NCBI GenBank assembly: GCA_044892505.1
Contig: CM097883.1
Location: 79,174,001-79,238,000, forward strand
Direction of reading: 5' to 3'
DNA from: Schmidtea nova
Taxonomy: Eukaryota
DNA length: 64,000 nt
Shown here: positions 7,101 to 53,356 of the stretch, piece after piece
Layout of the letters: each line of letters opens with the position of its first letter
Position numbering within the stretch: position 1 is the first letter of the stretch
Notes under the pieces: generated by a model
The model's input: the letters and a program-made list of their open reading frames with translations, nothing else
Database searches by the model: none
Told to the model about the DNA's origin: nothing
Program-made: the position numbers and the translations under genes

Positions 7101-7715
7101 ATACAGTAGAATTATATTCAGGACTTGCTAAGGTAGCGAGCTAAAGAGACAATAGCTTGAAGCTCAATTCAAAAAGAACGCAAAGATATAAAATTCTTTT
7201 TTATATTCTCTTAGACATGACAAGTAAATTTTTTCAGCCTTCCCCATTTATATTACTCATTGACCAAAGCAAAGATCAAAATATCAAAAAAGAAAGAAAT
7301 AATAATAATATTTTTAAAGGCAAATTAAAGATTAATATAATAAGAATATTTTCGATAAAGTGAAATTTATTCGTATTAGATTAAGTCTTTGATTTTGATT
7401 TGCGTAGTGTTGTATAATAATCATAGGGCTTTAATATCGAAGACATTGAATTACAATTTGATTTAATTGAAGATAATTTTATTGGACAATTTTCCTGGTA
7501 AGTAATATTTTTTTTAAATAGCTAATATTAATATACAAATATATATTAATAAATTTCCCTTCTTAAGAATAATGATTAAAGATAGAAACAATCTGGAACC
7601 GAATCAAAAAACAAAGGTTGGCAAGTGACTTGTCAAACCAAAAACAAAAAATGATTTATTAAAAACTTTTAAAACGAGGGCAGATAAAAAATTATCTGAT
7701 GATGCTTCACAACAT

Positions 7716-8273
7716 AATTTAGTTTTAACTGTAAATAACCAATCAGTAGCAGAAGCAGTTGCATACCCGAGTTACTTTTTTAGAAATAAACAAAAACCAA
7801 CTCTTAGATGTCCCAAATCTGAAGTGGAAATTGACGATTTGAGCAAGATGATATTGCCTTCTCTCAAGAGTTTAAGTGAAGAATCCGAACTGTACATTGC
7901 GTATATGGCATATTATATGGACAAAATAGAAGATGTCATAGAAGACGGGGACTGGAGATCTCATGGAATTCTTATAGGAAAAAGGGGAGAGAAGATCACT
8001 CCTTTATCTCTGATGGATGTAGAGCTTTACAACACCGTAATAGGAGGCTCAATAGGCAGAGCGGTTGAAGGAGAAAGGGCCAGATGGGGTCTTTTCTGGG
8101 GGTTGGTAGCGATGTACAGGGCAATGCTTGTAGGTCAGAGTGGCGACCAGCAATATATCGTTAAAGAGTCCGAAGCTACAGCGACGGTATTTAAATCACC
8201 GCCGTTTAATGTTGACATCACAGAATTCATTCAATTTGCTAAACTTAGAACCAGCTTGTCTATCCCTAACTAA
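7716..8273 (+). other. N: Endogenous viral element: N-terminal half of a rhabdovirus nucleoprotein
   Basis: Frame open 7629-8273. LTVNNQSV..YPSYFFRNKQKPTL, DWRSHGILIGKRGEKITPLSL, LFWGLVAMYR, VFKSPPF, SIPN are collinear with rabies N (FKVNNQVV, YPAIKDLKKPCI, DWTSYGILIARKGDKITP, LLLSLYR, IFETAPF, TIPN) as recalled. Confidence 0.85.
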
Positions 8274-8486
8274 ATGACCAGTGTCAGACACGTTTACTGA
8301 TGTTTTAAATGACTATGAAATGGAAGAAGATGTTCTTTTGTCAACTTCAAATATCGATGAAACATCTCAATTGTCAAATTTGGACAATAATCACGATATT
8401 TTGAATAGTAATACAATCATAGAAGATTATTTTAATATAGAACAGTAACTTTATAATATTAATATAATTACCGATATTCTTATTAA

Positions 8487-8683
8487 CCCTAGAAAACATG
8501 GAAGTGATCTGAGTGGTTCAATTTAGTTTTAGATAACAATATCTTCTCTATGGAAATGAGATAATGTCTATTATTTGATTCTAAATTACTAATTAATTAA
8601 AAATAATTTGATTAATGTTATTAGTGACTAATTAGAATATCAATAAAATAAAAATATTAATTTCTAAGCCACGTTTTTTAGGG
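8487..8683. mobile_element. piggyBac-derived MITE (197 bp)
   Basis: TTAA on both sides (8483-86, 8684-87); 15-bp TIR CCCTAGAAAACATGG vs CCCTAAAAAACGTGG. Confidence 0.8.
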
Positions 8684-9258
8684 TTAAAATGTTCCCGTCA
8701 AATTAATTAATTATGCTTTTCCAATGACTATACCATTTGGTCAAAATAGAGAATTCAGTCCAAATCCTTATTATCGTAAGTCAGCAAATGGCAAGAAATA
8801 TCATCGTAATTGGCTTTTATTTTCAAAATCAAGTTGTAAATTATTTTCAAGCAAATTTTTTAACAGATAAATGGTTTACCGAATGGGAAAATGTGAACAA
8901 TCGCTTAAATTAGATAACCATGAAAAAAGAAATTAAAGATAATATTTGAGAAAATTTAAAATTGGCAAAATATTATTTGATTATCCTAGATTCCACACCA
9001 GCTCAATACGAAACCGAACAAATGACCAGTAATTGTGAGCTTTGTGATGATGTTTCCTACTCCTGACAAGCAGGGAAAATATATTAAAATATGCAAACAT
9101 TTTTTGGGTTTGTTAACATTATTAATAGCACTGGAGCCGGATTAATAAAAACAATTCTCGGAATTCAAGACACAGGTCATTCGACTGAATTTAATAATAT
9201 ATTTTAGTTTTCTGTAATTTAATTCAAGTGATAAAAATAAACTTTGCATTAGTTAATC

Positions 9259-10941: not shown

Positions 10942-11289
10942 AGGAATGAATTTTTCTTAATAAAAATACATTGTTTCAATATAAAATTAACTAGTTTCAT
11001 TACAAAAAACGTAATTTTCATATATCAATCAAAATAACGGGTTTCAGTAAAAATGGTATACATTTAATGTCAGTAAATTTAGTATTAAGTAAACTGTCGC
11101 GACGACTGTGGTATTTGCGTAATTGGTGTCCTCCGTCGGTAATTGGATGACATTGGTTTTCGATACATGTAAATTCATTTGTGTGCCCGCAGTAAAAAAG
11201 CATCAAGATTTCGAATTGACGTCATAGCTTGTGGGTGAATTGCAAACAGCACCAAAGCCGTATTTTTTTTGTTAAACATAATTGTAACA

Positions 11290-11585
11290 TCTGTGTTAAC
11301 CATCACTTGGATTGGATTTTCTCGAGTCATCAAATAAATCGGTTCTAATGCATGTTTTATGATATTGTTTGCTTTGATCCTTTCCTCATTATTTCGACCG
11401 TGCATCATTAGAGAACTTGTTAATCGTCCAACAATTGGAAATTGTGCTTTTCTATATCGTTTTGTTTGATAAGGACCAGCAGACTGGGGAATTATTTTTT
11501 AATATTTTCCACTATAATTGATACAATCTGTTAATGATAGATCGATAGTGTGAACATCATCATTGCTCCATTTAATAATAAGCTT
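11290..11585 (-). pseudogene. RPS5: Processed, truncated 40S ribosomal protein S5 pseudogene
   Basis: [75 protein letters not shown]; intronless, one stop, C-terminus missing. Confidence 0.9.
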
Positions 11586-12956
11586 AAAGTCAGATATATC
11601 AATAGTTTAACTGGATTATATATAAAAAATAAATTCAACAAGAAAAGCATATTTTTTTAAACAAACGTATTTTTTATATACAGTTTTTTAAACAATTTCT
11701 TTTCTTTTTTATTTATATAATAAAATATATATTACAACCATGTATACATTTAATATATACTTAATTTATGTTGGGTTATTATTCTGTAAGATCGGTTTAC
11801 TGACCTGACTCCTCGTGCTCTTTAATTTTCGAAATCAATGAACCCAACACAGAACAATCTTTTTATTCGCGATCAACACAAATTACAATTTTAGTTACAC
11901 ACACGTTTGATTAATTTACGCTTTCTTTCGATTCGGATTTGACTCTTTAATTCACAGGATGCTTTCTTACTTTGTCTGTTTAATCGTTTCAGGATCTTTT
12001 TCTATTCGCTTTCAAAGTCTTTTTAATAATCTCTTTTTGACTGTCCACTCGTCGGCCCCGTCCTCTGTTTTGCGCTGCCTTTTATAGTTCTAGCACCTAG
12101 CAATTAGGTTTTATCGATACCTAAAAGTTAACCAATATCGGGTTTAATTGTTTGGCTAACAAATTATTTTAATTATCCTCGGATGGATTTTCCCTAATTG
12201 CCCCGACTTTGATCTCTCGGGTCTTTTGGCGCTCGGGCTTTCCTCATCGCTCGGGTTTCCCATTGCCTCGGGCTTCCCATTGTCTCGGGTTTCCCATTGA
12301 GCGATTAATTAATTTTAATTAGTTTGTTTTTATTAAATAACTTTCTCTGGGGACCCCTTATTAAATTTCTATTATTAATTTTGGGTTCGTCTTTTGATTT
12401 GGTATTCAACCATACCCATTTCCCCCAGTGAATATTAATTTTACATTTTTGATAAATTTTAATTAATTTTTGCATTTTAATTTATTTCGATATTTCTTGT
12501 TACTTTTGTGATTTTTATACTAACCCCAACATATCTCACCCCTTTATTCAAGATTCGTCCTCGAATCTATTTTTCCATTAATAATAATTTATTATAATAA
12601 TTTCATATTGATTATAATAACAATAATAATTAATTATAATAACTGTAATAATTTTACTTATAACGATAATAATAACAATTGCAATAATGATAGTAATGCT
12701 AATTATTCTAATATTAATGATATAAAAATTCTAATAATTCTAATAATAATGTTATAATAATAATGATAATAATAATAATAGTAATAATAATAATAATAAT
12801 AATAATACTTAGAATTCGAATAATAAATTGTTAACGATAAAGTAACAATAAGAATTTGACAATAATTCGTTTATTTATTTATATTTTTATTTATTTTTTT
12901 TGCAATGGTCATATAATAATAATAATAACAATAAGTTGATAATTAATAGTTAATAC

Positions 12957-13618: not shown

Positions 13619-16600
13619 AAATGTTGGTTATTATTCTGTAAGATCGGTTTACTGACCTGACTCCTCGTGCTCTTTAATTTTCGAAATCAATGAACCCAAC
13701 ACAGAACAATCTTTTTATTCGCGATCAACACAAATTACAATTTTAGTTACACACACGTTTGATTAATTTATGCTTTCTTTCGATTCGGATTTGACTCTTT
13801 AATTCACAGGATGCTTTCTTACTTTGTCTGTTTAATCGTTTCAGGATCTTTTTCTATTCGCTTTCAAAGTCTTTTTAATAATCTCTTTTTGACTGTCCAC
13901 TCGTCGGCCCGTCCTCTGTTTTGCGCTGCCTTTTATAGTTCTAGCACCTAGCAATTAGGTTTTATCGATACCTAAAAGTTAACCAATATCGGGTTTAATT
14001 GTTTGGCTAACAAATTATTTTAATTATCCTCGGATGGATTTTCCCTAATTGCCCCGACTTTGATCTCTCGGGTCTTTTGGCGCTCGGGCTTTCCTCATCG
14101 CTCGGGTTTCCCATTGCCTCGGGCTTCCCATTGTCTCGGGTTTCCCATTGAGCGATTAATTAATTTTAATTAGTTTGTTTTTATTAAATAACTTTCTCTG
14201 GGGACCCCTTATTAAATTTCTATTATTAATTTTGGGTTCGTCTTTTGATTTGGTATTCAACCATACCCATTTCCCCCAGTGAATATTAATTTTACATTTT
14301 TGATAAATTTTAATTAATTTTTGCATTTTAATTTATTTCGATATTTCTTGTTACTTTTGTGATTTTTATACTAACCCCAACATTTATATTTAATTTATAT
14401 TTAATATAAATATTATATTTATTGTATCAGAACAACTACCAAAAAAACAATTTTAGAAGACAAACTTGTGACTCAAAAATAGTACCAAAAATTTGTGTTG
14501 AATATGAAAAAAATGAAATTGTAATTAAAATCAAAGGTGAAGAAGATTAAAGATTTTAATGATTGACTATTATGTAATTCTAAAAAATTCGTAATTTATT
14601 TATTATTAAATAATTTTATATATAATTACGTTAATTACCTTTCATTCTGTATATAAAATACAATTGCTTATTGTACTTTTGTTGGACAAGAACCCAATAA
14701 AAATTCGATTTTATTTTGTGGCTCCAAAGATTCACAAACATACACTGGGAAGAAGTTAAAATTAATATTCAAGAAAAATAAAATAATTAATCCAAAAAAT
14801 CAAACAAACCAAAATAATAGTTTTTAAAATAATTAAAACACGGCAAAAATATCATAAAAACAATTAAAAAACATAATATAAGATTTAAAACTATGAACAT
14901 CTAAGATAGTGAACGAAATTCATCACGGAGCCTAAAATAGCGAAAATAATTTAAAACAATTAATTTAAAATGGCAAAGACAAATTGAGAAATCCAATAAG
15001 AAAACAGGAAAATAAAGAAAAAAAATTTAATTAATTAAAATAAATGGAAAAAAATTCGAAGACTGATAGGCAGTATTTTTTCTAAAGCGATCCTTTCACC
15101 ATGGTCAGTCCTGGCGCGGGGCAAACACGTGCGATGCAGGTTGGCGGCCGATTTATCAAAATCTCAATTTCCAACAACAATTTAGCCTGGCTAGGAATAC
15201 TGTCTATGTATCTGTGTCCAAGGAGATTTTTAACATGATCTTCATTTAAAATAGGAGTCCAGATTTGTTATCCATGCCGAAATTCTATAGGCTGGCTTAT
15301 ATCATAGTAACTTTTTTCTATATTAAAAATATTGATTTTAGTTTCTATTTTTAGATTATTGGAATCCCATTTTAGTTGCAATTTCAATCCCATTTTTATT
15401 GTTTAGCTTTCTTCAACTTTATAGTCATACTATTCATTATTTAGAAACTCGATTTCTTTTGGGACAGAATTCGAAAAACTCAGTGAAAATCACAATCAAA
15501 TGGCAAAGTATATTATGCTGTCTTTTTTATTTTCCGATTACATTAGTCATTTTGAACGTTAGATTCTACTTGTTGGATAAATGGATAATGTATCTCAAAG
15601 TAAATTTTCCTTTTTCAACTAGATAATTAGGCCGAATAATTTATGAATCAGGATTTGTTACTTAAAAATTGGACAATACATTGCGAAAACAGATGAAATT
15701 TCTCAGGAGGATCCAATTAGCAAAATATTAGTTTATTACGAAATACTAAGTAGATTTATCAGCTTAATTTGGAATTTATGACACTGATTTAACATTTCCA
15801 GAAATGAGTATCGTTATGATAGTATTTCTTGTATTTGTAGCTTTTATGGAAATTTTTCTTTAAAGAATTTTAACTGTTTTATTTTTAATTACTGATTTTT
15901 TTATTATCGAATTTTGTTAATACATTTTTGAGTTAGTTTTTTAATTACTATAATTTCTATCATTAAAATTTTGAATATATCTTGGAGTTTGTTAGTTTTG
16001 GGTTCCCATTAGAGTAAACCCTTGTCTATTTATAAAAAAACCACTGACGCACTAATATAGAAATTTTCGATTTTCTTATAAATTAAACACTCTATCGTAT
16101 TTCGAAAATGCTATTCACTTTCTGCTATAACTCTAAAATCTCTAGACAATGGTAACATTATTATTTCACTAACTTTTTGATGTTGATAAAATACAAAATT
16201 AAAAAAGATTGACTATAAAGATTTTAAATCGCGATGTGAAGATTTCACTATGTTCATGGCTATGATAGCTATGGCTATGTTCGATGATTTTAATTTATGT
16301 TTACAATAATTGTTAAATAATATTTCGACATAGTTTAAGTGGCAGGAGATGCGTGAAAACTTTCTGTCGAATTTTTAAAAAGCACGGTTTTACGATCTAT
16401 TTTATTCGTTTCTACTCTTTGAGTTTGAATAGACATTGTCGTGGAAAACAGGCTGCAAGACGTATGTTGAAGTTCCAAATTCTCAACTTTGGTCACTAAA
16501 TTAAATAAATTAAGATAAGACTGGTAAAACGATTTTTCTTCATCCTCTTTGCTAGCTGAAATTAATATCTCGTTGGACCTGACCTACCAGGTTTATCTCA

Positions 16601-23453: not shown

Positions 23454-23745
23454 TTAGTGACTAGCCTTTGCGTCGGTGCCACTTCTCCAGTCCTTACTGG
23501 AAACAACTTCAAAGCGGGAAACTCCATCTTGGATTCTGACGTCGATTTTCAATTGGGCAATCTCCGCGTCCCGTTGTTTCACGGTCATTTTTACCGCGCG
23601 CAGTTGGAACGCGTCTTCTGCGGCCTGCTCCTGTAATATTCTATTTTGCTTTCGCATCTTCTCGGTGCCCTCCACATTCGTCCAAGTGGATTCCACTTTC
23701 CGGCACTGAGAGAGAAAGCTTTGGAGCGGATTGAGAGAAGCTTTG
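23454..23745 (-). other. GC-rich coiled-coil-like ORF fragment, right of which lies the L EVE
   Basis: KMRKQNRILQEQAAEDAFQLRAVKMTVKQRDAEIAQLKIDVRIQ; no family recognised. Confidence 0.4.
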
Positions 23746-24805
23746 TCCAGGAACACAAGAACAACCTTTTTAGCTCAAGGAGACAACCAGGGGATTATCA
23801 TCCAATATAAAATGAGTTGGCTGGATCAGGATGAAGATACTTTGAAGGATCGCATGATGGAAATATGGAATAGCAATTCTTTTATTATGAGGGAAATCGA
23901 AGAAGAATCTAGAAAGCTCAATTAACTCTTCAATCACGATGAGGTAGCAACTTCAGCTGATTTCCTCATGTTTTTTTTCTTTTTTTTCCTCTCTTTAGAG
24001 GAATTTATGTCACTGTAGATAACAAGAGGTGGTCTCGAATGTCCGCCGTGACCAACGATCAGATCCCAAGTCTTGCCAACTCAATATCTGCCATGTCGAC
24101 CTCAGTATTAACTGTTAGTCAACATTCGGAAAATCACATTAAGTCTGTAATAAAATATACCATCTGAATCATTCATATTATCGACTATTTTTTATAATAT
24201 TATTCTAGGGAAAAATCCGTTCTCAAAATTCATCAACAAAACAAGCGACAGAACAAGCGACAGAACCCGCCAGAAGAAATTGGCAATCAAGGCTTTGTTC
24301 AAGGATCCTAGTGTAGGAGGAATATGTGGGACTTCTCTGAACAGATTTCTTATTAGAGGATTCCCAGATCCGGTGTCGGAATCATTATCTTGGTGGAAAT
24401 GGATGTATCATAACTCCGACGATAAAGAAGTGAGGGAAATCGCCGTAGGGTGTGAAAAACCTAAATATGGGGAAATCAGTTTGGTTTCATTTTCCAAGTT
24501 ATTGGAAAAACCGACTTTTCTGAACATTCCCAGTTCCATATGTACAGATACCCTGATAAAAGAAGAAATAAAATCAGAGCTGTTCAAAAACAGACGACAT
24601 CAAAAGCACCAGCGTGAGATTCGCCATTCCGCAATCAAGGGACACTACTCCATTGCTTATCAATGCACTGATGAGAATAAAACCTATTTTCCCAAGATTT
24701 TGAGTGTATTTTATGCCAGTTCGTTCATGAAGATTTCAGATGAGATCGTAGGGCTATTCCATAACTCCAAAACCATTAAAAGGGTCTTTTCAAAACACAT
24801 GTCTC
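23731..24805 (+). other. L: Endogenous viral element: rhabdovirus L polymerase RdRp core fragment (stops and frameshifts)
   Basis: FLAQGDNQ (motif C), KLN*LFNHDEVATSADFLMF, PLFRG..KRWSRMSAVTNDQIP, DPSVGGICGTSLNRFLIRGFPDPVSESL, LFHNSKTIKRVF; collinear with VSV L as recalled. Confidence 0.93.
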
Positions 24806-24956
24806 TCAAATTTCTCCATCCGCTTCGTCATCACTCGGAGCTCTACATAGAGGAGCTTCTTTTCCTCTTCCATCTCTGCTACGCGGGCTGTCAGATGCCG
24901 CATGCTCCTGTTCAATCCAGTCAACTGAAGCATCATTTGATCTATCTTGGATTCCA
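24790..24956 (-). other. Coiled-coil-like ORF fragment preceded by a splice acceptor, abutting the right end of the L EVE
   Basis: tgtgttattcag|aaATG then MESKIDQMMLQLTGLNRSMRHLTARVAEMEEEKKLLYVELRVMTKRMEKFE. Confidence 0.4.
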
Positions 24957-50407: not shown

Positions 50408-53356
50408 ATGGTGAGACTTGTATGGATGTTTAAACTATCATTTCTAATTAGTTTAACAATAACCTGTTATTTTATTTATTTCATTCACATCAACTTGCTC
50501 GTTATTCACAATGAAAATCACGATTTTTCTGAAGATCGAAAACATTTATGCAATAATTTATATTGTTCAAAATTCTATCACAATTACGTCAATGTCCATC
50601 TGGTTCCGATGAGCCATTTAGAAAATTCATGGTTGAAAGAACTGGGAGGTCTTTTCAAGTGTAGCGAAATTCACATGAATAAAGTGAATATAAAAACCCT
50701 ATTTAATTCAGTTTATTTAGCTTTGAAATTGAATTCAAGTAGAAGATTCATAATAACAGAAATCAGTTTCTTTCAGCAATGGTACGATGATTTGGACCCT
50801 AACCAAAAGGCCGTGGTGAAGATATTTTTCGACCGTGGCCAATTGCAATTCGTGTCGGGCGGCATTGTGATAAACGATGAGGCGACAACTCACTATTCGT
50901 CCATAATAAATCAAATTTCATTGGGGTTGAAATTTATTAAAATAAATTTTGGATTATGCGCCCGGCCGCTAGTTGGCTGGCAAATCAATCCTTATGGCCA
51001 TTCAAAAGAAATGGCAAATATAATGAAAAAGATGGACTTCAAAGCGGTTTTTCTTAGCCACATTCCGTCGCAATTGTCGAATTTTGAGATGGATTTCCTT
51101 TGGCAGACAAAAGATACCAACGACAGCAATGTCGGCAATTCAATCTTTACTTCAATTATAACAAGCGGTATCGTGGCCCCAAGAACTTTCTGTTTTCATG
51201 GGCATTGTAAAAATAATTTGAAAAGTGCTTCAGAAAGCTTCATCAACTCCGTAATGGAAAGGATTTCCCTACAAAACAACACCAAGCACATTTTAATTCC
51301 ACTGGGCTGTGATTTTCATTTCCAACAAGCACTGGAAACATTCAAAAACTTCGACAAAATCATTGACATTGTCAATTCGAAACAAAAGATCTTTCGAGTG
51401 TTTTACTCAACTCCCGCTTGCTATTTGGAAGGAGTCGCCAATTCCATTAGAACTCTTCAAATCTACAAGAATGACTTTTTTCCATTTGACAAATCACTGA
51501 AAGAGTTTTGGATAGGATTCTATTCTTCGAGACCTAATTTAAAATTATCCATCCGTTTAGCTGAAAGTTACATTCAAACTTGCAAAATGATAACGGCATT
51601 GAGTGACAAGGAGTTTAATAGGAAGCGAATCAAACTTGTTGATGATCTCACGTACTTGTCTGACTTGATTTCGAAGACCCAACATTATGATTACATAACG
51701 GGAAACAATCCAGCACAAATTGTCCAAATGAAAACCAAAGAGCTAAGCGAGGCAATAAAGATCTGCCACGAATTGTCGGCGGCTGGCGTAGAAAGTATAA
51801 TGAAACTGAAATCTGCCAATCGCAAGTCATTGCTCTTCTATGACTGTCCATATCTTGATTTGAGCTTTTGCTCTTTAACTGACAATATCCAGCTGAATAA
51901 AATGGTGAATTTAATTGTTTTCAATCCATTGCCATATCCGTATACAACTTGGATATATTTGCCGGTGAGTCTTGACATTCATCAAACCTACGAGGTGAAG
52001 GACGTCTGGAATACTTTACTACCGATTGATATTGTTCCAATAAATAAACTGATACTAAATAATAAAGATCGGCCATCTAAAAGCAAAGCAAAATATAATA
52101 TTTATTTCAAAGCCCAACTTCCAGAAGCGGGTTACACAGTGTTTTCAATTAGGCGAAAGCGAAAGAATTTCTGGGACTTCAATAAAATATTAGTCTCAAA
52201 ATCCCTGATTCTCGCCCACAAGGTTCACATATCGAATTCTGTAATAAATGTCTCGTTAAATTTAAAAACAAATAAACTCGTGATCAGGACACGAGGTAAG
52301 AAGGTCTCAATGTTTTTAGGAATAAAATGTTACTGTACAAATTTGGACGGGGTTAATGCGTCGTCGGGAGTGTTTGTGTCAGTACTAAAGGATATGTCGA
52401 AAACCATTCACAGTAAACCAACTTCTTACATTTTGGATGGGTCTTTGGTAAAGGAAATTCGCCGAAAGTACAGCAGTGGTATCGGTTTGACAATTAGACT
52501 CTTTGAGGGTCAAGATAATGTTGAAATAGAATGGGTTATCGGCGGAATTGACGAGAACAGTAACTTCAATCGAGAATATGTGTTATCATACAGATCAGAT
52601 ATAACTACCAATAACCAATTTTTCACAGATTCTAATGGTCGACAACTGATTAAACGATTTCTAAAGAGAAATGTCTCAATTGAATCTAATTTCTATCCCA
52701 TCACATCGCATGTATTAGTGAACAATAGTCGCAATGTCGGTCTATTAATTCATACGGATAGAAGCGTTGCGGTCGGTGGCAGGGTACCTAATTCGGTGGA
52801 ACTGCTGATTAATAGAATAATTCTTTCTTTTGATAAAGGAAGTCTCAATAAGCAATTGAAAGATGTCGGGTCAAACCGAAAGATATTAAGTGTCATTGGG
52901 AGAAATTGGATTGAAATCGGCAGTACGAATCATTTGATAATAAATCGAAGATTAAAGTCCAATGAAATATTTAAGAAGCCCATTCTCATGTTCAAAAAGA
53001 ACAATATCGTTGATTTTTATTTGAAAATATTCACTCACATCAAAACCCAACCGAGACATTTGAACATTTTGACTTTGGAACCGATTTTAGAGCCGAACTC
53101 TAATAATGGAATTATTCTACTAAGACTAGAAAATCTAAAAGACATCAGCAGCAACGAAAACTGGAACCGTTTCAACACCGTTCGGGTTGATCTTAAGCAT
53201 TTTTTTGAAAATTTTAACATTTTAGAAGCAATTGAAATGAATTTAGCAGGAGATAAAGAATTAAAAATACTTGACATAAAATTCGGATTTAAGTTTTCAA
53301 TAAAACCAATGGAAATAGTTACGATAAAAATTAAACTTTCTGAGACTACAGATTAA
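50408..53356 (+). CDS. Intronless GH38 (lysosomal class II alpha-mannosidase-like) protein, 982 aa, N-terminal hydrophobic anchor; catalytic residues substituted
   Basis: VHLVPMSHLENSW, FVSGGIVINDEA, WQINPYGHS, LGCDF, YSTPACY, FWIGFYSSRP, QHYD, FFTDSNGRQ, NFYPITS. Confidence 0.92.
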   Translation: MVRLVWMFKLSFLISLTITCYFIYFIHINLLVIHNENHDFSEDRKHLCNNLYCSKFYHNYVNVHLVPMSHLENSWLKELGGLFKCSEIHMNKVNIKTLFNSVYLALKLNSSRRFIITEISFFQQWYDDLDPNQKAVVKIFFDRGQLQFVSGGIVINDEATTHYSSIINQISLGLKFIKINFGLCARPLVGWQINPYGHSKEMANIMKKMDFKAVFLSHIPSQLSNFEMDFLWQTKDTNDSNVGNSIFTSIITSGIVAPRTFCFHGHCKNNLKSASESFINSVMERISLQNNTKHILIPLGCDFHFQQALETFKNFDKIIDIVNSKQKIFRVFYSTPACYLEGVANSIRTLQIYKNDFFPFDKSLKEFWIGFYSSRPNLKLSIRLAESYIQTCKMITALSDKEFNRKRIKLVDDLTYLSDLISKTQHYDYITGNNPAQIVQMKTKELSEAIKICHELSAAGVESIMKLKSANRKSLLFYDCPYLDLSFCSLTDNIQLNKMVNLIVFNPLPYPYTTWIYLPVSLDIHQTYEVKDVWNTLLPIDIVPINKLILNNKDRPSKSKAKYNIYFKAQLPEAGYTVFSIRRKRKNFWDFNKILVSKSLILAHKVHISNSVINVSLNLKTNKLVIRTRGKKVSMFLGIKCYCTNLDGVNASSGVFVSVLKDMSKTIHSKPTSYILDGSLVKEIRRKYSSGIGLTIRLFEGQDNVEIEWVIGGIDENSNFNREYVLSYRSDITTNNQFFTDSNGRQLIKRFLKRNVSIESNFYPITSHVLVNNSRNVGLLIHTDRSVAVGGRVPNSVELLINRIILSFDKGSLNKQLKDVGSNRKILSVIGRNWIEIGSTNHLIINRRLKSNEIFKKPILMFKKNNIVDFYLKIFTHIKTQPRHLNILTLEPILEPNSNNGIILLRLENLKDISSNENWNRFNTVRVDLKHFFENFNILEAIEMNLAGDKELKILDIKFGFKFSIKPMEIVTIKIKLSETTD

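Follow-up and report, generated by a model that had tools for sequence, protein, structure and literature searches.

A frame of more than 200 codons lies open in a repeat-rich stretch of 64,000 nucleotides (the window), and a first-pass annotation had read it as an endogenous viral element (EVE) derived from a rhabdovirus nucleoprotein (N), "either young or maintained". This raises the question of whether the frame is viral at all and, if so, whether it is a gene kept by the host or a fossil that has yet to be broken. In the ORF listing, the frame runs from stop to stop at 7629-8273 (+) and encodes 214 amino acids; as the annotation had stated, there is no internal stop (214 codons plus the stop) and the product ends at SIPN. 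Mononucleotide shuffles of the window produced a frame as long as 214 codons in 0 of 30 cases. The frame matched the Pfam family PF00945 (Rhabdo_ncap) with E=1.7e-15 and 57.3 bits against a curated cut-off of 26, its residues 29-176 being aligned to profile positions 1-144 of 410. All 12 matches of a PDB sequence search were rhabdovirus N, the top one being of lyssavirus type (E=5.9e-8). The structure of 7692-8270 predicted by AlphaFold had a pLDDT of 87.5, exceeding 88 across residues 31-190, and its best PDB match was the rabies N-RNA structure 2gtt (E=9e-10), with VSV N matched as well. Of the 43 matches of a BFVD fold search at E<=0.001, 2 had no name, and the other 41 were nucleoproteins named as rhabdovirus or rhabdo-like. 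The fragment also carries the W, I, P and R residues of the alignment columns with 90% conservation. The comparison with Rhabdoviridae N that the annotation had proposed thus gave significant Pfam, PDB sequence and fold matches which, together with the host flanks, bear out its reading of the origin. We conclude from Pfam, fold and paralogues that positions 7691-8272 (+) are a genuine rhabdovirus N fragment of about 193 codons, comprising the N-terminal arm and the N-terminal lobe.

The viral part does not fill the frame. A host repeat, 73-77% identical to its other copies in repeat alignments, occupies 7108-7690 (+), and its last ~62 bases encode the first ~21 codons; two of the five repeat copies examined align as far as 7690. 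A match of residues 1-21 to L004, a paralogous N copy elsewhere in the genome, was set aside as mostly chance within the host repeat, a few junction bases fitting either side. An ATG at 7651 was also rejected as the N start, being out of frame, followed by a stop after three codons and located within the host repeat. Judged by eye against paralogues L004 and L005, the ~7 first residues of N are absent, the alignment with L005 being gapless from about the eighth residue of the latter. At the other end, the 71% nucleotide similarity to the nearest paralogue is lost around 8272, two short gaps lying right before the stop codon, and the whole C-terminal half of N is absent. The GC content of the viral part is 0.40 versus ~0.29 for the host. 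A functional rhabdovirus N gene has a start codon, both lobes and about 420-470 amino acids; here, the first in-frame ATG is found only at 7848, and on an N profile of 453 positions the fragment covers 19-200. The longest ATG-started frame (7848-8273, +; 141 amino acids) begins inside the N-terminal lobe. The copy is not an intact gene. The earlier description of the frame as roughly the 200 N-terminal residues of N holds for the arm and lobe, but 7629-7690 belong to the host repeat and the start of N is missing; likewise, the frame is uninterrupted, but it is that of a half gene truncated at both its 5' and 3' ends.

We considered the possibility that the fragment was an assembly artefact or a contamination by an infecting virus or a prey animal. 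It sits on a 455.7-Mb contig with repeats on its flanks. In runs X1-X3, one contig each runs through the whole fragment and its two junctions without differing letters and with flat depth, and in run X4 the fragment is covered by two overlapping pieces; the left junction is covered without differences by contigs of four DNA runs. The fragment was identical in 4/4 DNA runs, but these belong to one study, hence are not independent, and the source sample is possibly among them, which is the point in favour of an artefact. Against this, the short-read contigs link the fragment to host repeats at the depth of the flanks, thirteen further degraded N loci are found on three chromosomes, and an RNA virus enters a DNA library only after reverse transcription. 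We regard artefact and contamination as already largely refuted, with almost no probability left to them. The N fragment is embedded in host chromosomal DNA and is an endogenous viral element.

Other copies of the 7108-7690 repeat have CAGGG-like ends, which suggest, as far as sequence can tell, a non-autonomous DNA transposon; its 3' end was not found within the window. The viral part is followed by an AT-rich spacer (8273-8480), for which a genome copy search found no second copy and in which neither N similarity, nor poly(A), nor a duplication of the 5' flank was detected. Next come a multi-copy miniature inverted-repeat element (8481-8690) with TAACCCTA-type ends, ~80% identical to other copies and which we take to be of piggyBac type, and a broken piggyBac-type transposase (PF13843; 9253-10697, +). 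The frame had been contrasted with neighbouring transposable elements (TEs) full of stops; this is true of the adjoining piggyBac, which is broken, but the window also holds an unbroken 744-codon frame, and a broken viral L polymerase fossil described below contains a stop-free stretch of 269 codons. The 744-codon frame (13-2244, +; GC 0.45, no Pfam match) presumably resembles a DNA transposase and is probably a recent insertion. Elsewhere, the window contains a single-frame gene for a 982-amino-acid lysosomal alpha-mannosidase-like protein (50408-53353, +), with ~28-30% identity to its best database matches and 22-33% to all but one of 33, and a ribosomal protein S5/S7-like fragment (11175-11498, -; PF00177) that is probably a processed pseudogene. 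A 765-bp direct repeat (11768-12532 and 13621-14383; 99.6% identity) around an N-masked stretch could be either a young terminal repeat or a local duplication.

The N fragment of the window belongs to a larger set of fossils. At least 14 N loci were recognized in the genome, from 16 PF00945 matches among 24 candidates, along with about 12 regions containing fossils of the L gene, from 26 PF00946 matches among 29 candidates; only part of these L regions were classified, and mononegaviruses other than rhabdoviruses are known from triclads as well (PMC12282299). The chromosome carrying the window represents 36% of the genome and holds 10 of the 14 N loci and 9 of the 12 L regions (binomial p ~0.014 and ~0.013, respectively, for an assumed share of 0.39 and with loci that are not independent). 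Compared with its nearest paralogue, the window copy showed 68% amino acid identity over 93 codons, a pS of 0.80 (saturated) and a pN/pS of 0.22, this low ratio between paralogues reflecting the viral phase; three other N paralogue pairs were 47-49% identical at the amino acid level. Because synonymous sites among the copies are saturated, they represent separate insertions of different viruses. Their divergence took place in the viruses, under purifying selection, and each copy was inserted on its own.

Two paralogues retain traces of their insertion. L010/L017 has the layout LTR, PBS, N, 67 element bases including a purine tract (PPT), LTR, with a 5-bp flanking duplication in which 4/5 bases match; its LTR family is 4 kb long with gag-, protease-, RT- and integrase-like frames (domain labels assigned by eye). 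This layout, a clean example, shows retrotransposon capture of viral RNA between Gypsy LTRs. It is similar to the LTR-mediated retroposition described by Tan et al. 2016 (PMC5131818) in its LTR-insert-LTR chimera and in the A-rich stretch shared at the 3' joint, and differs from it in that the cargo is viral RNA; the window copy is without any such mark. The LTR-flanked N copy of the 4-kb Gypsy family is located at L065:2384-3888 (G000:C2, ~16.89 Mb). Paralogue L004 (L064:3004-4695; G000:C1, ~577.15 Mb) retains nearly all of the N gene, carries an ATAC-rich tail and lies inside a host repeat; its target duplication, at 170 bp, is unusually long, which suggests a second insertion route. Neither LTR, PBS, PPT, poly(A) nor target duplication was found at the locus of the window copy, and since it has no insertion marks of its own, its mechanism has to be borrowed from its paralogues. 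If the window copy arose as they did, viral RNA would have been copied by the reverse transcriptase of a host retrotransposon in a heritable cell of a free-living flatworm, the resulting N copy would have landed in an old repeat of the host, and a deletion, at insertion or later, would have removed the second half of N together with the end of the host repeat. Double-strand-break capture fits the window copy equally well.

We sought to evaluate whether the open frame called for selection. In the 12 other N loci, at least 31 breaks were found in 3018 codons (a hand-counted lower bound excluding L014, with its 7 stops), giving a probability of 0.14-0.17 that 193 codons would be open; by arithmetic, this falls to about 0.10 once L014 is added. 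Unbroken runs of 221 and 223 amino acids are present in paralogues L003 and L006, respectively, L003 being clearly broken elsewhere. In simulations of neutral decay with indels, the frame was open in 21-58% of cases when substitution was 1-2%, in 10-21% when it was 3% and in 1.5-8% when it was 5%. Flanking repeats that were once identical now differ by 3.1% for L004 and 6.2% for L010, or 1.5-3% per copy, and the open frame is compatible with an age of the copy not exceeding that of these paralogues. Such a frame would be surprising if the copy were as old as the flanking repeats, which are 73-80% identical, because the simulated probability at 5% is 0.015-0.08. Co-option would predict a frame longer than neutral decay allows, and this is not what we found: given the probability of 0.14-0.17, which leaves selection possible, and two equally unbroken copies, nothing points to maintenance. 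The alternative posed at the outset was therefore half right, in that a young or slowly decaying copy fits, but maintenance finds no support, given the missing start codon, the missing half of the protein and the same probability. The stop-free frame is likely to reflect ordinary slow decay and not a gene kept by selection. We consider it quite likely that the locus is a start-less, half-length copy of an N gene in a host chromosome, made by the reverse transcriptase of a retrotransposon and decaying without protein function, neutral decay having possibly proceeded to up to roughly 2-3% divergence.

The opposite interpretation is that the N-terminal lobe was co-opted as a host protein, for instance as a dominant-negative poison of nucleocapsid assembly, with translation starting at the ATG at 7848, or after splicing or spliced-leader addition had joined it to an upstream exon. 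There is a precedent in truncated bornavirus N elements, which inhibit virus, and the 193 viral codons free of stop and frameshift, the fact that the fragment stops close to where the N-terminal lobe does, and the good predicted fold (pLDDT >88 for residues 31-190) are in keeping with such a role. However, the start codon is missing and initiation at 7848 would drop the arm and part of the lobe, while the RNA groove of rhabdovirus N is formed by both lobes and requires them. The two short junction gaps that precede the stop look like those of a random break, similarly long open runs are present in broken copies, and the confidence of the structural model is owed to the alignment and not to any selection acting on this copy. 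Either route to a host protein is, in our view, very improbable. A role in which the open frame would be irrelevant is modelled on the non-retroviral integrations of mosquitoes and ticks: the N protein would be dead, and the locus would be kept or used as a template for PIWI-bound piRNAs against a related virus. The host carries PIWI-clade genes, one of which (L047) scored ~270 bits with Piwi/Siwi versus ~90 with AGO proteins; moreover, the fossils are clustered on one chromosome (10/14 N and 9/12 L, the loci not being independent), two of them lie less than 16 kb apart in a TE-rich window, and tick integrations are described as favouring piRNA clusters (PMC6580184). The argument is nevertheless drawn from genome sequence, and relaxed purging in TE-rich regions also yields clustering. 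Furthermore, TE fragments of the window are in both orientations, as judged by eye, and copies that are 47-68% alike at the amino acid level could each match only their own virus. We therefore hold a piRNA function to be unlikely, and return to neutral decay as the preferred reading.

The second fossil of the window bears on the origin of the N fragment. An L polymerase fragment with a GDNQ motif, interrupted by stops and frameshifts, is located at 23733-24852 (+), 15.4 kb downstream of the N fragment, on the same strand and in N-to-L order. Its PDB matches were rabies and VSV L only, with nearly equal scores (101.3 and 100.6 bits). The two fossils could be the remnants of one viral antigenome insertion, later split by transposons and deletions, an origin compatible with neutral decay. 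The shared strand and gene order argue for this, as does the arithmetic of ~26 loci in 1.25 Gb, by which the chance of a neighbour within 16 kb is near 6e-4. Yet no other N or L piece was detected between them, the C-terminal half of N and the N-terminal part of L being untraceable there in searches for N and L; a hot spot accounts for the proximity, given the fossil clusters elsewhere on the chromosome; and the best-preserved paralogues, L004 and L010, look like single-gene copies. A single insertion thus appears possible but doubtful.

We next consider which viruses left these fossils. A library search gave 44 matches, headed by an unnamed protein (36% identity, 80.9 bits) and then by Santa Barbara virus and Obodhiang virus, with Ixodes, Haemaphysalis and Acanthocheilonema genome proteins also present; neither a lyssavirus nor a platrhavirus was found among the 30 of 44 matches looked up by name. 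A tree was built from 13 N copies (L014 was left out as too degraded) and 30 library proteins, with 14 hits under 290 amino acids omitted, no named lyssavirus row included and six EVE rows filling half or fewer of the columns. In this phylogeny, an analysis also proposed by the first-pass annotation, the 13 copies formed one clade (support 100/99), which grouped with two proteins without a name, P0002 and P0006 (100/98), all named viruses of the tree lying outside this group. The fold of P0006 was no nearer to any named virus. The idea that the locus records a rhabdovirus lineage infecting the ancestors of the host is thereby upheld and indeed extended, infection having been repeated (at least 14 N loci, 13 of them in one clade). 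The emphasis placed on lyssaviruses was not: the fragment resembles N of the dimarhabdovirus type broadly and not that of lyssaviruses in particular, lyssavirus N scoring 35.7 bits versus 80.9 for the best library protein and rabies N being one of many fold matches at 16-26% identity. A lyssavirus would be expected to cluster with that genus at high identity in both N and L; the fragment is about 22% identical to rabies N itself, the L fragment scores alike with rabies and VSV, and the fossil is not a lyssavirus. With dimarhabdovirus-type N proteins (Santa Barbara, Obodhiang, soybean thrips rhabdo-like virus 1, rabies, VSV), the fragment has family and fold in common, but identity is <=40% where partial stretches align and 14-26% in fold alignments of nearly full length.

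Platrhaviruses (Alpha-, Beta- and Gammaplatrhavirus) are likewise rhabdoviruses tied to flatworms, but their known members, as described in PMC12451637 and PMC9241645, were found in parasitic Neodermata (cestodes, trematodes) or in animals that carry such parasites. Wenling dimarhabdovirus 1, a betaplatrhavirus according to the ICTV table (PMC12451637), and Fujian dimarhabdovirus, likely another, ranked 28 and 35 in the fold search, with 16% and 18% identity, below insect, tick and rabies N. This comparison of predicted folds gives a weak hint that the N lineage is separate from platrhaviruses, for which the ICTV criterion of membership is clustering in full-length L trees (PMC12451637). Scans of IMG/VR with the N query and of metagenomes with the L core returned no relative, and ESM Atlas gave no usable match to the query. 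Word-index protein searches with the N fragment and with the C-terminal-piece alignment gave no match either, which is weak evidence for this type of search. The IMG/VR scan with the L core recovered one contig, L066, whose 1886-codon L-like frame is 40% identical to an L fossil core. On balance, an unnamed rhabdovirus clade in a free-living flatworm seems fairly likely.

The nature of the host is indicated by its own genes. In COX1, AAA occurs at 2/2 Asn-aligned sites, ATA at Ile of the mouse and human chains, and TGA encodes Trp (table 9), a code also used by echinoderms; the gene is strongly T/G-skewed, as in flatworms. A flatworm is preferred to an echinoderm on account of this skew and of the low identity, 22-33%, of the alpha-mannosidase-like enzyme to all but one of its 33 database matches. 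Two COX1 copies lie 23 kb from each other on a single small contig (G000:C101; L031, L032), likely a doubled mitochondrial assembly, and a decayed nuclear copy was seen at C1:352.4 Mb (L033). Parasitic flatworms (Neodermata) are described as being without PIWI (PMC8191739), and the host is likely a free-living flatworm.

Rhabdovirus-derived EVEs are well known in mosquitoes and ticks (PMC6580184). The present fossils resemble the rhabdovirus integrations of arthropods and nematodes (PMC6580184, PMC5497376) in being fragments of N and L, many per genome, in TE-rich DNA, and also in their association with retrotransposons and a PIWI-bearing host (PMC6580184); they differ in their host, likely a free-living flatworm, and in source viruses that group in a clade of their own. 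As rhabdovirus fossils are common in arthropods, an object of this kind is ordinary; its host is not, and the interest lies in this host and in the unnamed virus clade, the single open frame being least important. In the survey of Dheilly et al. 2022, the only flatworms with Rhabdoviridae were parasitic ones, and the authors proposed fish as the source from which an ancestral parasite acquired them (PMC9241645). No report of rhabdovirus EVEs in free-living flatworms was found in titles and abstract openings, mostly of open-access articles; a supplementary EVE table could list such loci. Because at least 13 diverse, independently inserted copies are present in a PIWI-bearing, likely free-living host, our results suggest that rhabdoviruses also infected free-living flatworms, and the virus lineage may have persisted in this group of hosts for a long period. 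The proposal of acquisition from fish becomes testable with L trees.

One may go further and imagine a deep rhabdovirus clade in free-living flatworms of planarian type, apart from platrhaviruses and not yet sampled as live virus, whose mRNAs, archived by retrotransposons at clustered loci, would feed a PIWI-piRNA memory in heritable stem cells. All of this holding together is distinctly unlikely. This genetically tractable kind of animal would nonetheless be suited to testing EVE-derived piRNA defence beyond arthropods. As a side observation, four long single-frame PIWI genes of 819-845 codons were found at G000:C2:404.98-408.90 Mb (L005, L008, L042, L043, L047-L050), with two N and two L fossil regions among them, all within 4 Mb.
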